From an uncultured Armatimonadetes bacterium (GTDB taxonomy: Bacteria > Armatimonadota > UBA5829 > DTJY01), in assembly GCA_963717145.1 (NCBI GenBank), contig OY970325.1, forward strand, positions 2,496,001-2,560,000: DNA of 64,000 nt. Direction: 5' to 3'. A program made the position numbers and the translations under genes. A model generated the notes under the pieces. The model saw only the letters and a list, made by a program, of their open reading frames with translations, was not told the DNA's origin and searched no databases. This document shows positions 10,406-57,183 of the stretch, in pieces (position 1 is the stretch's first letter; the number at the start of each line of letters is the position of its first letter).

Positions 10406-10434
10406 ATTATAGCATTCCGGGCTGACTGCCGCAA
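10406..10434 (-). promoter_or_regulatory. Sigma70-type promoter of the pil operon
   Basis: TTGCGG-17-TATAAT with TG extension on the minus strand. Confidence 0.55.
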
Positions 10435-17133: not shown

Positions 17134-17919
17134 TCAGGCCCGAGGACCGATTCCGTGCTTTTGTGCCGCCCGCGGATCGTCCGCGATCGCATCCCACGGA
17201 TCGTCGCCCGGCGACGGCTCTTTGTCAGGCGGCAGCAGATCATATTTCACGAACAGCGCGCGAGTGGCCCTGGTCAGGATCACGCTGCTCAGACCCATGT
17301 ACAAGATTACCATCGGCACCATGAGGCCTGCGGAAAGGCAAGTGAGGAGTATTATAGCAAACAGGACGAAGCCGGTAAAGGACGGATTGTCGAGCGCGAG
17401 AAGAAACCCTCGCTTGAGCAGCTTGAATGTGCTCGGTCGCTGCTCGATCAGAACCGGGAAGTGGTACAGCGCGCTCATCATCCAGATAAGCATTCCGTAG
17501 AGGAACAACATGCCGAGGCCCTTGACGATCATGTTCCCATGGGACAGGTAGAACCATGCGTTGACTGCAATCAGCAGGGTGATGGCAACCTGGCTGAACG
17601 AGAGCAGGACGGCCCGTCCCCAGTGCTCCCTCGCGCCCCGGAAGAGATCGAGCGGCGTCGGATCGTCGTGGGTGATGATCTTTCGGGCTATATGATACAC
17701 CCCGGCGGTGAGCGGTCCGAGAAGCAGGCTGTACAGGCCGATGACGAACACGATCCAGGCCATAGGCGACGGCACGCGGAGGGCGGCCCATCCCGAGAAC
17801 ATTGCGACTGCGACACCAAACCAGACGCAACTGCAGAATATCACGATCCCGAGGTAATCGTATGCATCGCCGAATGACTTCTTGATCGTCTTCCAGAATC
17901 CAGGCATGGGAAACCTCAT
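17134..17919 (-). CDS. DUF624/YesL-like membrane protein
   Basis: Multiple hydrophobic segments, GPLTAGVY motif, sugar-gene context; start placed downstream of the REP pair. Confidence 0.6.
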   Translation of the reverse strand: MRFPMPGFWKTIKKSFGDAYDYLGIVIFCSCVWFGVAVAMFSGWAALRVPSPMAWIVFVIGLYSLLLGPLTAGVYHIARKIITHDDPTPLDLFRGAREHWGRAVLLSFSQVAITLLIAVNAWFYLSHGNMIVKGLGMLFLYGMLIWMMSALYHFPVLIEQRPSTFKLLKRGFLLALDNPSFTGFVLFAIILLTCLSAGLMVPMVILYMGLSSVILTRATRALFVKYDLLPPDKEPSPGDDPWDAIADDPRAAQKHGIGPRA

Positions 17920-27730: not shown

Positions 27731-28315
27731 TCAACAAAACATCGCAGACGTCCTGGTCACCCTCCGACGTCCGAAGAAGATCATGAGGACCGCCACCAGG
27801 AACAGCGCGTCGAACGCGAGAAACGCCAGGATGGCTGGAGATGCGTCGGCGACCAGCCGCATCGAAAGCTCCATCAGCGAGAGCGCGTTTCGAGCCACGA
27901 TTCCAAGCACGGCCCAAGCCGTCTTCGCATAGCCGATCGCGCCTACTACAATGCGGTCCACTGACCACGACGCCATCCAGCCGTAGAGCGCGAACCCGAG
28001 CGCGGATAGAATCACGAGGCCCGCAAGCCAGGATGCGCCGAGCCATGCGAGGACGGGCCTCGGGTAGCGCACTCCGGCGGCATGCCTCGACGCGGGGTGG
28101 GCATCCGGCAGCCGAGCCATCACCGCCCCGACAATATCAACGACAGGCAGATCGTCTCGCCCCTCATCGATAATGCGGCACATCTCCGACATGCCCGCCT
28201 GCCACTCGCGGCAAGCCGTGCACTCCTGCGCGTGCCGGGCAGCTTCCGATGCAAGCGGATGGGTTTCGCCATCCAGAACCCCGTTCAGGATCTCTCGTGC
28301 CTTGTCGCAGTTCAT
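27731..28315 (-). CDS. Zinc-binding anti-sigma factor
   Basis: MNC...HAQECTAC (ZAS motif) plus TM segments, downstream of ECF sigma. Confidence 0.85.
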   Translation of the reverse strand: MNCDKAREILNGVLDGETHPLASEAARHAQECTACREWQAGMSEMCRIIDEGRDDLPVVDIVGAVMARLPDAHPASRHAAGVRYPRPVLAWLGASWLAGLVILSALGFALYGWMASWSVDRIVVGAIGYAKTAWAVLGIVARNALSLMELSMRLVADASPAILAFLAFDALFLVAVLMIFFGRRRVTRTSAMFC

Positions 28316-28875
28316 ATCGACACCTCAACTCCTGCCAATCGCCGCCTGAGCCTCTCCCTGGCGAGGTGGAGATCGGACTTCACCGTGCCCTGCGGCCTTC
28401 CGGTCGCCTCGCTGATCTCCCTGATGCTCAGGCCATTGAAGTGAAACATCACCAAAGCCGCACGATGGTTCTCCGGCAGCTCGAGGACAGCCTGATTCAG
28501 TCGTCTGCTCGTGTCGCTCTGAAGCGCCACCTGCTCCGGCGACTGAGCGTCGGATGCCAGTTCGCTCGCGCCGGATTCATCATCGTCGATCGAATCGGCC
28601 CGGCGCAGAGCGCGCCGCCTCAGGGAATCAAGGCAGGCGTTCCGAGCTATGCGGAACACCCACGTGAGGAACTGAGCATCCTGCCTGAACGACTCCAGAG
28701 CATGGTAAGCCTTCACGAAGCTCTCCTGGGCAGCGTCGGCCGCGTCATCGGCATTGCCGAGCATGCGGTAACACAGGCTGTAGACCTGGCGCTGGTACTT
28801 CCGCACCAACAAGTCAAAGCCCGCGTTGTCGCCCGCGAGGCATCTCTGTACAAGCTCGGCATCGGATGGTCCCAA
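28312..28875 (-). CDS. ECF sigma-70 factor (SigW-like)
   Basis: DAADAAQESFVKAY, FLTWVFRIARN, GTVKSDLHLAR. Confidence 0.93.
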   Translation of the reverse strand: MGPSDAELVQRCLAGDNAGFDLLVRKYQRQVYSLCYRMLGNADDAADAAQESFVKAYHALESFRQDAQFLTWVFRIARNACLDSLRRRALRRADSIDDDESGASELASDAQSPEQVALQSDTSRRLNQAVLELPENHRAALVMFHFNGLSIREISEATGRPQGTVKSDLHLARERLRRRLAGVEVSI

Positions 28876-28909
28876 TCCTCCAGCCTCTCTTCACTGCGCC
28901 TTCACAGGT

Positions 28910-28937
28910 ATTACGGACGAGGATCAGACGTGGTTGA
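28910..28937 (-). promoter_or_regulatory. Putative autoregulatory ECF promoter
   Basis: TCAACC-N16-CGTAAT on the minus strand, matching the AAC/CGT consensus of SigW-like promoters. Confidence 0.55.
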
Positions 28938-28969
28938 GGGTATTTTCGACGGGGAGGATGCAGCGACCT

Positions 28970-29033
28970 TGGAGTGGTGGAGCAATGGAGTATTGGGGAA
29001 TTGGGCGGCGAACCCAGTACTCCAACACTCCAT
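28970..29033. repeat. Octamer-based hairpin repeat (TGGAGTRN)n
   Basis: tggagtggtggagcaatggagtattggg ... cccagtactccaacactcca. Confidence 0.65.
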
Positions 29034-29036
29034 TCG

Positions 29037-30026
29037 CTAGAAGTAGTTGAGGTGCATGGCCTCGCGGACCTCGGACATCGTCTTCGCGCCTTCCTGACGG
29101 GCGCGCTCGGTGCCGGAGCGGAGGATATCCTCGACCAGATCGGGATTATCTTCATACTTCGCACGACGCTCGCGCATCGGTTGGAGCAGCGTATTGAGCG
29201 CGGCAGAGAGGCGCTTCTTGCAGTCGACGCAGCCGATCTCCGCGGTTTCGCACGCCGGACGAAGCTCGGCGACGAAGTCGGGGTTGAAGACCTTGTGATA
29301 CTCGAAGACGGTGCAGACATCCGGGTGACCGAGATCGGTCCGACGCTGCCTGGCCGGATCGGTGATCGCCATGCTGATCTTCTGAGCAACCTCCGCCTCG
29401 GAATCGCTGAGGTAAATGCAGTTGCCGATGCTCTTGCTCATCTTGGCATTTCCGTCAGTCCCGACGAGCCGCCCAACCTCACCGACGAGGGCCTCGGGCT
29501 CGACGAGCACCGGCTTGTACAACTCGTTGAACCGCCGGGCGATCTTGCGCGCGAACTCGACGTGCGGGACCTGGTCCGCGCCCACCGGCACGAGGTTCGC
29601 CTTACAGAACGTGATATCCGCGGCCTGGCTCACTGGATAGCCGAGGAATCCATAGGTCATGTCCTCGTAGCCATACTGCTTGGCCTCGGTCTTGATAGTG
29701 GGATTGTGGCGCAGGACGTTCACCGTGATGAACATCGAGTAGAAGATGGTCAGTTCGGCGATCTGGGGGACCATCGACTGGACGAAGATCGTGCACTTCT
29801 CCGGCTCCAGTCCGACGGCAAGGTAGTCCGTCGCCACCTGCCTGACATCGTCCGGAAGCCGCTCGGGCGACTCGAAGTTGGTCGTCAGCGCCTGAACGTC
29901 CGCGATGATGATGAAAGTGTCGTACTCGTGCTGGAGCCTGACTCGATTGGCGAGCGAGCCCACGTAGTGCCCCAGATGCAGTTTGCCTGTCGGTCGGTCG
30001 CCGGTCAGGATTCTTCCTTTGGTCAT
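29037..30026 (-). CDS. trpS: Tryptophan--tRNA ligase
   Basis: TGDRPTGKLHLGHYVG, YPVSQAADI, VPVGADQ, KMSKS; start MTKGRIL at 30026. Confidence 0.97.
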   Translation of the reverse strand: MTKGRILTGDRPTGKLHLGHYVGSLANRVRLQHEYDTFIIIADVQALTTNFESPERLPDDVRQVATDYLAVGLEPEKCTIFVQSMVPQIAELTIFYSMFITVNVLRHNPTIKTEAKQYGYEDMTYGFLGYPVSQAADITFCKANLVPVGADQVPHVEFARKIARRFNELYKPVLVEPEALVGEVGRLVGTDGNAKMSKSIGNCIYLSDSEAEVAQKISMAITDPARQRRTDLGHPDVCTVFEYHKVFNPDFVAELRPACETAEIGCVDCKKRLSAALNTLLQPMRERRAKYEDNPDLVEDILRSGTERARQEGAKTMSEVREAMHLNYF

Positions 30027-30268
30027 GGTGCAGACTGCCTCAGTGCCTGCCTGGGACTCATCCTGTTCTTCTTGGCAGACAGAATATGGCGCAATGCCCG
30101 AGGCTTCTCCACCCACAGCGCATACTCCTCATCAGAGAACCCAAGGAACTCCGCCAGCGAGCGACCGTCATCCGACTTGTGCCACAACTCCACATATTGG
30201 TCTATATCTTTTGGATCTGCCTGTCCCTCGAAACACAGATCAACGAAAGTTTTTTCGTGCTCAGACAT
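30023..30268 (-). CDS. Small protein with acidic N-terminal part, putative immunity/antitoxin
   Basis: 81 aa; start overlaps the toxin stop, stop overlaps the trpS ATG (ATGA). Confidence 0.6.
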   Translation of the reverse strand: MSEHEKTFVDLCFEGQADPKDIDQYVELWHKSDDGRSLAEFLGFSDEEYALWVEKPRALRHILSAKKNRMSPRQALRQSAP

Positions 30269-30491
30269 TCAGCATCCGTCCTCTCACAGGCCCCTTGACA
30301 AGCTTACCAGTTACAGCGTCCAAGCTGCCCAGGTGAAACCCCCGCTTGTTGAACGCTTCAATCTCACCGTGAAGTGAGTCCCAGGTGTAGAGTCTCTCGC
30401 CATCGGGTGATCTCCATACCTTCCGACGATTTCGTACTGTGCTATCGAGGTTATCTAGGAAACCAGGACGTGGTCTCGTCTTGCCAGCCAA
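30261..30491 (-). CDS. Stand-alone colicin E3-like RNase (Cytotoxic domain) toxin
   Basis: RKVW..DGERLYTWDSLHGEIEAFNKRGFHLGSLDAVTG..KGP mirrors the colicin E3 C-terminal YEWDSQHGELEGY...HLGSFDPKTG; TTG start after GGGGAG. Confidence 0.8.
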   Translation of the reverse strand: MAGKTRPRPGFLDNLDSTVRNRRKVWRSPDGERLYTWDSLHGEIEAFNKRGFHLGSLDAVTGKLVKGPVRGRMLNV

Positions 30492-30531
30492 CGCAGACTC
30501 CCCATGTGAGTATCGGTCGTGCTCTTCCATC

Positions 30532-30540
30532 ATTATAACA
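30532..30540 (-). promoter_or_regulatory. Extended -10 promoter upstream of toxin-immunity-trpS
   Basis: TGTTATAAT on the minus strand. Confidence 0.5.
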
Positions 30541-30609
30541 TGATGCAGCCTGAGAAGAAAAGACTGGCCCATGCAGGCGACGATGGCTAAGAGCCCATAC
30601 CGATCAGTT

Positions 30610-30783
30610 CTAGTCTTGATCGCAGACAGCCAGGTAACCCCTCATGGCCTCTTGGATGTTGGTCAGCGCTTCTTCTCTCGTCTTGCCCTGAGAATGACAC
30701 ACGGGAAGGGCCGGAACGCTGGCAACGATCCAGCCGCTTTCCCCCTGCTCAAGGACAACGGCATATCTAGGTTTCACTCGCAC
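30610..30783 (-). CDS. hicB: HicB-family antitoxin, short orphan (57 aa; not in ORF track)
   Basis: MRVKPRYAVVLEQGESGWIVASVPALPVCHSQGKTREEALTNIQEAMRGYLAVCDQD; AGGAGG RBS. Confidence 0.8.
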   Translation of the reverse strand: MRVKPRYAVVLEQGESGWIVASVPALPVCHSQGKTREEALTNIQEAMRGYLAVCDQD

Positions 30784-31771
30784 TACCTCCTGATCCCGTA
30801 ACTAGAGTAACGCACTGGGGGCGAAATGTCAACGCTCGACAGGTCGGTAGTCCTTCAACCTCGATCGGGATCTGCACGATATCCGACACGCCGGACTTGG
30901 TGAGGTGGCACGTCAGGATCGTGGTCTGCTTGCAGTTCTTGAACGGCGAGTCGAAGAGGAAGTTGCCGAGACTGTACGCGATCACCCCGCCGTGGTACTT
31001 CTCGACCTTCTGCAGGACGTGCGGATGGTGGCCGAGAATGAGGTCCGCGCCGGCGTCGATGATCTTGTGGGCAAGCTCGACCTGGGCGGGCTGCGAATGC
31101 ATCCGGTACTCGATGCCCCAGTGGAGGCTGACGATCACGACATCCGCCTGCTCGGACGCCTGCCGGACCTCCGACTCGATCGTCTCGGTATCGAGGTAGG
31201 ACGAGTTCGGCGCATCCGGGCGGAACCATGCGCCCTCCGGCAGCCACGCGTTCCGGGCAAGGAAGGCGATCCTGATCCCCTTCAAGGTCATGATGACCGG
31301 CAGAGCCGCGTCCGACGGAGTGTCCCCCGCGCCGATGTATGCGATCCCACTCTTCGCGAGATAGTGCATCGTCTCGATGAGGCCCGGACGGCTGCAGTCC
31401 ATGCTGTGGTTGTTCGCCAGCGATATCATGTCGAACCCCCCGTCGGTCAGGCATTCGACGTTCGCCGGATCTGCCTTGAAGCAGATCGGCTTCGTGACCT
31501 TGATGCCCCGAGCCGAGAGCGGGCACTCCAGGTTGCAGAAAGCAAGGTCAGCCCCCCGAGTCGTCTCCCGGACGCCCTTGAACGGCCACTCGATGCCGTA
31601 CTTCCTGATCTGCTTGTCGATCCCGCGGTCGAGCATCACATCACCGACCGCCATGAGCGTGATCGACGGCTCCGGCGCAGGCGGACGCACCTGGCGCTTC
31701 CTGCATCCACTCGGGCCTGTGAGTAGAATCGCGATGCCGAGCAGCCAGACTGTCCGCCGGAATTCTAGCAA
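30767..31771 (-). CDS. CapA/PGA_cap metallophosphoesterase-like protein
   Basis: GDVMLDR, NLE, LANNH..D, HWG.EY, GHHPHV, YSLGNF; true stop probably 30829 (suspected indel near 30856). Confidence 0.9.
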   Translation of the reverse strand: MLEFRRTVWLLGIAILLTGPSGCRKRQVRPPAPEPSITLMAVGDVMLDRGIDKQIRKYGIEWPFKGVRETTRGADLAFCNLECPLSARGIKVTKPICFKADPANVECLTDGGFDMISLANNHSMDCSRPGLIETMHYLAKSGIAYIGAGDTPSDAALPVIMTLKGIRIAFLARNAWLPEGAWFRPDAPNSSYLDTETIESEVRQASEQADVVIVSLHWGIEYRMHSQPAQVELAHKIIDAGADLILGHHPHVLQKVEKYHGGVIAYSLGNFLFDSPFKNCKQTTILTCHLTKSGVSDIVQIPIEVEGLPTCRALTFRPQCVTLVTGSGGSASET

Positions 31772-49640: not shown

Positions 49641-50268
49641 GCGTTCCCAATCGGGTTGGCGCTCTATGCATAACGGAATTTCTGCACCGCGATCTCGGAT
49701 TCCTTCCGCTCACCGAAGCGGGCGGAAAACACTACAGGTCACAGGCTGCACGACACGGTATAAGGAACCGGCCCCGGTCACTCTCGAACGCACCGTGATT
49801 GCCGTCTACGTCCAGTGCATCTCCAACACGGCTTTCTCACGCCACATAAGGTTCGGATCAGTCGACCAGGTTCGGTCGGCTGAGTTCGGATTCCGATTAA
49901 GGAAAGATGCCATCAGGAGTGCATTACAGCTCTTTTATATGGAATCCGAATCGCCGAACAGATCAGGGCCAGTCCCGAATCGCGGCCGTTTTCAGCAGTC
50001 CACTATGACCTTGTGAAGGTACGCTCCCGTTCGCCACGGGTGACAGATCGTATGAAGGACTGATATGAAGGTATGATTGCGGGATTTCTCCCACTTCGTA
50101 TGACGGCGTTACCTGCCGGCAAGGTTCCCAGTGCGTGTCCGGTTTTTTGGACTTTTCTTCAACCCTGAACGCACCCGTCCCCGTGCCTTGGCTCTCACGC
50201 AGCCCGGAGAACCCTCCTATCGTCCGCTTCTATTATATCACTTTTTGCCGAGCGCGGGCACCCTGAAA

Positions 50269-57153: not shown

Positions 57154-57183
57154 ATTATACCAGAGGCCCGACGGGCTTAGCAA
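57154..57183 (-). promoter_or_regulatory. hisD promoter, leaderless geometry
   Basis: TTGCTA-18-TATAAT with TG extension, 6 nt before the ATG. Confidence 0.6.

Follow-up and report, generated by a model that had tools for sequence, protein, structure and literature searches.

The 64-kb stretch of DNA analyzed here (hereafter, the window) comes from an Armatimonadota genome (G000) and carries, on the minus strand, a row of five co-oriented genes: a capA-like PGA_cap gene recognized in the Pfam scan (30767-31771); a gene for a 57-amino acid (aa) HicB-like protein of the UPF0150 type (30610-30783; PF15919, HicB_lk_antitox, 28.1 bits against a cut-off of 27); a gene for a 76-aa toxin that consists of a stand-alone colicin E3-type rRNase domain (PF09000; 30261-30491 including the stop codon); a gene for an 81-aa acidic, helical partner, a short (truncated) form of its family and the putative neutralizer of the toxin (30023-30268 including the stop codon); and trpS, encoding tryptophan--tRNA ligase (29037-30026; TIGR00233, 279 bits against a cut-off of 176.75). 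The next gene, downstream of trpS, encodes an extracytoplasmic function (ECF) sigma factor (28312-28875). The ATG of the partner gene lies within an 8-nucleotide (nt) overlap with the toxin stop codon, and the TGA of the partner (30025-30023) shares the letters ATGA with the ATG of trpS (30026-30024). A first-pass annotation, made from the letters of the window, had described the TTG start of the toxin at 30491, its diagnostic motifs, both overlaps and an extended -10 element upstream, and this layout proved right in every detail. We consider that the window probably harbors a cut-down version of a toxin-antitoxin-like module that is widespread and was gained here by horizontal transfer, with the toxin and a neutralizing partner now fused to trpS.

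The toxin belongs to the colicin E3 enzyme family. The Pfam Cytotoxic hidden Markov model (HMM), PF09000, aligned with it from position 28 to position 78 of the 80 in the profile, and the score of 50.2 bits (E 3.3e-13) is well above the curated cut-off of 22; this is the only PF09000 match in the genome. The motifs Y-T-W-D-S-L-H-G-E-I-E-A-F and H-L-G-S-L-D-A-V-T-G are both present, and the W-D-S-Q-H-G-E-L-E segment of colicin E3 aligns with W-D-S-L-H-G-E-I-E of the window toxin, with the D, H and E all kept. Nine residues are invariant in an alignment of 38 family members (T36, W37, D38, H41, G42, E45, G51, H53 and G62), among them the catalytic D38, H41 and E45 and the second histidine, H53. 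When the toxin-family profile was compared with the PDB, it matched colicin E3 chains (1e44_B, E 6.7e-14), and the AlphaFold2 model of the toxin (pLDDT 91.7) retrieved colicin E3 chains as all five of its best Foldseek matches (probability 1.00, TMq 0.65-0.77). The initial identification of an E3-type RNase domain with intact catalytic residues is thus borne out by Pfam, by the PDB profile comparison and by the fold. The first 22 residues, which are proline-rich and end in F-L-D, lie outside the Pfam match and are conserved in the family. The open reading frame (ORF) could also be read from an ATG (30261-30572, 103 aa); however, toxin homologues start with M-x-G-K, and because the TTG-started product begins like its best matches in the alignment, we assign the start to TTG (30491-30489), which gives 76 aa. 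A start-picking heuristic placed TTG at the beginning of 17 of 79 members of the toxin family. NCBIfam has no model for the toxin. The stand-alone form is already named in NCBI annotation.

Colicin E3 is a textbook exported weapon. The window protein is the RNase domain only, with neither the N-terminal translocation domain nor the receptor-binding domain of colicins and S-type pyocins, and the first-pass annotation had taken it for an exported-toxin domain repurposed as an intracellular toxin-antitoxin or abortive-infection module. A singular event it is not, as the toxin-partner module is widespread. Searching 5.8 billion proteins with the toxin returned 45 homologues among 48 candidates, mostly of 75-78 aa, and the toxin profile matched 1545 of 1.84 billion representative proteins at E <= 1e-3 (362 at E <= 1e-10). 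Among the 150 best representatives, 144 are no longer than 191 aa, and many match the profile from position 1. The six longer ones comprise two with sub-threshold RHS-type matches, one PT-HINT fusion, one TPR fusion and two with the Cytotoxic domain only (by Pfam); five of them match the RNase core alone (profile position 19 or later), and the TPR fusion matches positions 8-73. Homologues are therefore not always the tips of larger polymorphic toxins, an outcome that would have spoken against a free-standing toxin. In the window, the flanks of the pair (PGA_cap, HicB-like, trpS and ECF sigma factor genes) contain no rhs, cdiA or secretion gene, and the toxin is neither fused to nor orphaned behind an RHS, CdiA, LXG or PT-HINT carrier. 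Stand-alone copies of the toxin also occur on large Bosea and Rhizobium plasmids.

A scan of genomes for the toxin motif yielded 122 confirmed loci, and the counts given below for 80 loci refer to the best 80 of these. A homologous partner gene lies directly downstream of the toxin gene in all 80, across many phyla (in 78 it was located by script and in L073 by eye, and in L067 the contig stops 34 residues into it). The 8-nt overlap seen in the window recurs in 49 of 78 loci, and the partner is present in eight of the ten metagenome loci closest to the window toxin, the other two being cut or partial. Thus, the 81-aa ORF is a conserved cognate neighbor of the toxin, and the two small, co-oriented, overlapping genes that always occur together have the gene layout of a type II toxin-antitoxin (TA) system.

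The partner was harder to place. As a lone query, the 81-aa sequence retrieved two relatives, a number set by the word-index limit of the search, and a profile built from 68 members matched 416 proteins at E <= 1e-3. Almost all of the 120 matches listed are nameless or annotated as "hypothetical protein", and none of these carries a Pfam domain; likewise, a protein atlas returned only unnamed "hypothetical protein" clusters for the partner (0.87-0.89). No Pfam family or NCBIfam model corresponds to the partner, any Pfam match occurring in at most two and any NCBIfam match in at most four of the 68 members, all weak, and not one of the 68 matches Cloacin_immun (Imm-Cloacin) or Imm45. In the structural model of the partner (pLDDT 83), six short helices are bundled together. 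The protein is not recognizably a colicin E3 immunity protein, although a very distant kinship is possible, and the null result of the fold search does not establish a new fold. The earlier designation of this ORF as a putative immunity gene therefore stands as far as its conserved place beside the toxin is concerned, whereas HMM and fold searches gave no relationship to the colicin E3 immunity protein. The two proteins differ in charge, with a median isoelectric point (pI) of 9.7 for the toxin (10.9 in the window) and 4.6 for the partner (5.5 in the window), a contrast more in keeping with a nuclease and its inhibitor than with a repressor that binds DNA. Most likely, the partner binds the basic toxin and keeps it inactive.

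Clustering the ORFs of the loci revealed a recurrent third gene directly after the partner, encoding an ImmA/IrrE-type (M78) metalloprotease (PF06114, E 1e-12 to 1e-16). It is present in 44 of the 74 loci with enough DNA past the partner to judge (four further loci, with too little sequence, were left out), and all 44 proteases have the HExxH motif. The partner comes in two forms, the long one carrying an extra C-terminal module of about 30 residues. The protease accompanies a long partner (>= 95 aa) in 44 of 56 loci and a short partner in none of 18. Because the protease occurs only with the long form, it is suggested to act on the C-terminal module of the partner. The two-gene TA system proposed in the first-pass annotation thus holds in that the pair is conserved, but the usual form of the module has three genes, and the window copy lacks both the protease and the C-terminal module of the partner.

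The complete trio is also found in phages. Three temperate Gordonia phages carry a Cytotoxic-domain gene, and in Phabuloso, where the region was examined, genes 52-50 (L117:1210-3035) encode the Cytotoxic-domain protein, a partner homologue with the same 8-nt overlap and an M78-like protease, next to the immunity repressor in the prophage immunity region. The first 70 residues of gene product 51 match the partner in hhalign (99.2%, E 2.5e-19), and the Phabuloso proteins are longer than those of the window (168 and 284 aa). Their public labels are "HicA-like toxin", "HicB-like antitoxin" and metalloprotease; the HicA/HicB names find no support in Pfam and, from the sequences, look wrong.

Several observations show that the window copy was inserted upstream of a resident trpS and that it is reduced. 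At 51-52% identity, the closest homologues of the window partner have 104-113 aa; the window protein aligns with them to its last residues and stops just before their C-terminal module. From 30020 to 30740 the G+C content falls to 0.52-0.55, compared with about 0.60-0.65 on either side, and among 301 sampled genomes of the phylum the toxin profile matched the window genome alone. An empty site in relatives, which the first-pass annotation had named as a check, does exist: the nearest relative, G001, whose TrpS is 91% identical and which shares the flanking genes, has capA, 399 nt and trpS, and G009 has the HicB-like gene, 355 nt and trpS, with neither toxin nor partner in these 355-399-nt leader regions. 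The similarity between the window and its relatives resumes at the ATG of trpS, such that the acquired stretch (30027-30609, minus strand), made up of toxin, partner and the region upstream, stands in place of the leader region of the relatives.

The HicB-like gene does not belong to the module. As it has no homologue in any of the 80 related loci, we attribute it to the host locus, and its occurrence in G009 indicates that it predates the insertion. Accordingly, the HicB-like protein was rejected as the real antitoxin, being absent from the related loci and present in G009 without a toxin. The pair is not a HicAB system either, since there is no HicA and the toxin is a PF09000 protein. The gene is solitary, and the copy upstream of the trpS leader in G009 is 67% identical; a weaker HicB-like copy lies beside trpS in a further genome, G026 (L098).

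What the insertion displaced appears to be a regulatory leader. Of the eight relatives from the same family that have a trpS locus, six carry a short upstream ORF with 3-4 Trp codons and a conserved core, W-A-W-R/W-W (L083:2560-2790, minus strand; L087:1225-1440; L084/L085:1270-1470; L088:2660-2870, minus strand; L089:1180-1400). An alignment of these six leaders folds into three conserved hairpins, with the Trp codons in the first and, in most, a U-rich tail after the third; the alignment fold, on which the third hairpin rests, has 40 predicted pairs, six of them with compensatory changes. A promoter-like site lies just upstream of the leader ORF in G001. Judged by these features, the leader looks like a leader-peptide attenuator. 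A simple terminator scan of the G001 and G009 leaders found no site, and Rfam returned neither a T-box nor another relevant family at E <= 0.01 for the trpS loci of 12 relatives. In the window, the features of the Trp-codon leader are absent upstream of trpS. Several relatives have two TrpS matches at E <= 1e-40, whereas G000 has one; since the leader is missing as well, the only trpS of this genome appears to have exchanged its Trp-sensing leader for the toxin operon.

Expression of the pair and of trpS is likely to be joined. The first-pass annotation had proposed translational coupling of the pair to trpS, and both the fused codons and a terminator scan, which found no terminator-like site between toxin and trpS, agree with this. 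Because the stop codon of the partner is fused to the trpS start and the native leader is gone, trpS is probably co-transcribed and coupled with the pair. The candidate signals for the toxin are a Shine-Dalgarno-like GGGGAG (30498-30503, minus strand), 6 nt before the TTG, and the extended -10 promoter-like element TGTTATAAT (30532-30540, minus strand), about 41 nt upstream of the toxin start, both putative from their sequence. Shuffles predict 0.26 occurrences of the string TGNTATAAT in the window, where it was seen five times. The four other perfect extended -10 elements, all on the minus strand, are at 10406-10414, 17351-17359, 50232-50240 and 57154-57162, and for at least one of them a 347-aa ORF follows 52 nt downstream; promoters of the extended -10 type may be common in this organism. 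In addition, TTGACA, a 17-nt spacer and TACTCT are found at 30800-30850 (minus strand), inside the 3' end of the capA-like ORF and just upstream of the HicB-like gene, a position comparable to that of the promoter-like TTGACT/TAGACT upstream of the trpS leader in G001. From its sequence and placement, this site could feed transcription into toxin, partner and trpS.

A module of this kind beside a synthetase gene is not confined to the window. Among the genome loci, the toxins closest to that of the window (56-58% identity) belong to three Verrucomicrobiota metagenome-assembled genomes (MAGs; L002-L004), where the order is again toxin, short partner, trpS. The TrpS proteins of these MAGs are only 33-36% identical to that of the window, so trpS did not travel with the module, and the idea that toxin, partner and trpS moved together from one phylum to another was rejected, the window TrpS being 91% identical to that of its nearest relative. 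Apart from a tyrS-like match, the three Verrucomicrobiota genomes have no trpS-type match other than the linked gene. The arrangement is rare: in the order to which they belong the toxin was found in four of 301 sampled genomes, namely these three and one weak match. The three toxins are 73-78% identical, with ratios of nonsynonymous to synonymous substitution rates (dN/dS) of 0.04-0.08, and the TrpS proteins are 79-89% identical, with dN/dS of about 0.10, rough values given that dS is saturated. The pattern is consistent with an active toxin that has long been kept by vertical inheritance.

Elsewhere the neighbor is hisS, which follows toxin and partner in three loci from Acetobacteraceae and Rhodopila (L016, L045 and L056). 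In one alphaproteobacterial MAG (L077:1975-3213, plus strand) the toxin frame runs on from ispG (GcpE, E 1e-122) as a 413-aa open frame, for which an insertion at the 3' end of ispG or a misleading annotation may account; in related genomes, hisS comes after the module. Altogether, the module is linked to a synthetase gene in 7 of 81 loci, in about three lineages, and the ten metagenome loci closest to the window toxin contained no further trpS linkage. The recurrence is suggestive. The broader proposition that modules with an E3-type toxin have, time and again, captured the signals by which aminoacyl-tRNA synthetase genes are expressed (trpS in one Armatimonadota genome and, independently, in three Verrucomicrobiota species; hisS in Acetobacteraceae-type genomes), in the window at the cost of a Trp-codon leader that would respond to tRNA charging, we regard as doubtful. 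If it were true, a module could become undeletable by hitch-hiking on an essential gene, which would be a new route to addiction, or a ribosome-cutting toxin could become tied to the supply of a charging enzyme, such that translation stress and toxin release would be linked.

These features can be combined in a mechanism. Free toxin, if active, would cut 16S rRNA in the decoding center of the cell's own ribosomes, and translation would stop. The acidic helical partner would bind the basic toxin and hold it inactive, and in three-gene members of the family the M78 zinc protease would remove or cleave the partner on some signal and release the toxin. In the window, where the partner ends before the C-terminal extension and there is no protease, the toxin and the neutralizing core would remain, and trpS would probably be transcribed with the pair and translated in part by coupling.

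The best-supported interpretation is that of a type II-like TA or defense module, usually released by a protease, which in the window has been trimmed and welded to trpS; the alternatives are less well supported. Several points nonetheless weigh against it. Only positions 28-78 of the Pfam profile are matched, and the N-terminal 22 residues of the toxin are specific to the family. Toxin started from a TTG could be poorly expressed, and a consensus promoter scan, in which a -35 element was required, found no site in 28800-31000. The case for direct binding and neutralization consists of gene order and charge, and nothing in the PDB resembled the partner model significantly (best E of 3.2 with Foldseek, best Z of 2.9 with VIA). 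The truncation of the partner might itself be a sign of decay. Finally, the E3-like (E3L) ribotoxins discussed below, whose domain architecture and gene neighbors are not stated in the available text (PMC9304027), may or may not belong to the stand-alone subfamily.

Some of these points would be expected if the pair were a decaying relic, the dead or silenced remains of a module that once had three genes, with the DNA kept only for the expression signals of trpS. The truncated partner, the absent protease, the TTG start and the negative consensus promoter scan all point in this direction, and with the trpS leader of the relatives missing, loss of the upstream DNA would have a consequence. Yet the toxin ORF is intact and keeps all invariant residues of the family, TTG starts are shared with the members counted above, and an intact toxin with a short partner and no protease is found in 18 of the 74 evaluable loci besides the window. 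The strong purifying selection on the toxin in the trpS-linked Verrucomicrobiota copies also argues for function, and we consider decay unlikely. It is still harder to regard the partner as mainly a regulator or adaptor, with neutralization coming from elsewhere, for example, from the HicB-like protein or from low expression. A few partner homologues do have weak, sub-threshold matches to sigma-70 region-4-type models, Foldseek gave weak hits to DNA-binding domains, and annotators of the Gordonia phages labeled the pair HicA/HicB-like. However, the strong acidity of the partner (as its median pI indicates) would be out of the ordinary in a DNA-binding protein, all related loci lack the HicB-like gene, which predates the insertion, as judged from G009, and the partner is the only gene invariably linked to the toxin, which together make a primarily regulatory role very unlikely.

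That leaves an orphan cassette of a secreted polymorphic toxin or bacteriocin, that is, a detached C-terminal tip with its immunity gene, used against neighboring cells or kept for recombination into a larger gene of the rhs or cdiA type. PF09000 domains do end RHS, PT-HINT and colicin proteins, as described in the available text of Zhang et al. (PMC3482391), but the stand-alone family possesses a conserved N-terminus of 22 residues and start codons of its own, its best representatives are overwhelmingly short, with the six long ones matching mainly the RNase core, and HMM searches identified the partner as neither Imm-Cloacin nor Imm45. With a single PF09000 match in the genome and no rhs, cdiA or secretion gene in the flanks, such an origin is highly improbable, and the trimmed, trpS-linked TA or defense module remains the interpretation that we favor.

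On this interpretation, the colicin E3 enzyme is seen here as a free-standing, predicted intracellular protein in many phyla and in temperate phages. A full-text literature search, with most subscription journals outside its scope, turned up no account of an E3-type toxin that stands alone and is accompanied by this partner or by an ImmA/IrrE protease, and PADLOC holds no defense-system model for the toxin, the partner or the HicB-like protein (its sole hit was NsnC, E 0.064). The toxin domain is well known, whereas the partner family, the three-gene M78 architecture and the link to synthetase genes appear to be undescribed. If our reading is true, these modules would form a new, large TA or defense family that cuts the decoding center and whose release is controlled by proteolysis, and RtcB2-PrfH ribosome repair would gain a plausible everyday substrate inside cells. 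In the window, an essential synthetase gene without its own sensing leader would hang on a toxin operon, such that a selfish module and a housekeeping gene would share their fate.

Among known systems, colicin E3, cloacin DF13 and pyocin S6 (PF09000; PDB 1E44, 1JCH, 4V5K) have in common with the window toxin the fold and the D/H/E residues, along with the second histidine, and the colicin E3 system also resembles the module in the order of toxin and then inhibitor and in the pairing of a basic enzyme with an acidic partner. Unlike colicin E3, the window toxin has no receptor-binding or translocation domain in its 76 aa, and its first 22 residues are specific to the stand-alone family; furthermore, the partner is helical and, by HMM and fold search, not recognizably related to the immunity protein, and most members add a metalloprotease gene. 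The Tox-ColE3 tips of polymorphic toxins, which are accompanied by Imm-Cloacin or Imm45 (Zhang et al. 2012, PMC3482391), share the toxin domain, including the second conserved histidine, and a downstream protective gene, as far as the accessible text describes them. In contrast to these tips, the window toxin has no trafficking or pretoxin domain and its close relatives are free-standing, and the two immunity families went unmatched among the 68 partner members scanned. Experimental counterparts are the E3L ribotoxins, which are likewise PF09000 proteins distant from colicin E3: according to the available portion of Tian et al. (2022, PMC9304027), four such proteins were all toxic in Escherichia coli (4/4) and made the colicin E3-type cut in 16S rRNA; that portion discusses neither a partner nor a protease. 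RelS-RelI of Mycobacterium tuberculosis (PMC13284704), a TA system that also cuts 16S rRNA, was considered and set aside, being RelE/BrnT-like and unrelated.

For the three-gene form, a close parallel is the three-component TA system predicted by Makarova et al. (2009, PMC2701414), in which, in the text available to us, a COG2856 (ImmA/IrrE) protease and an Xre partner accompany RelE or PIN toxins. The usual E3-type trio likewise combines a toxin, a small partner and an M78 zinc protease; it differs in having an E3-type rRNase as its toxin in place of RelE or PIN and a partner that is not a recognizable Xre helix-turn-helix protein, and the window copy differs further in having trpS, and no protease, directly after the partner. 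Proteases of this type act on partner proteins in other settings too. In ICEBs1, the ImmA protease acts on ImmR. In Deinococcus, IrrE cleaves the C-terminal domain of DdrO, as the consulted part of PMC12828697 describes, and the E3-type trio resembles this system in that its protease is tied to the partner's C-terminal part.

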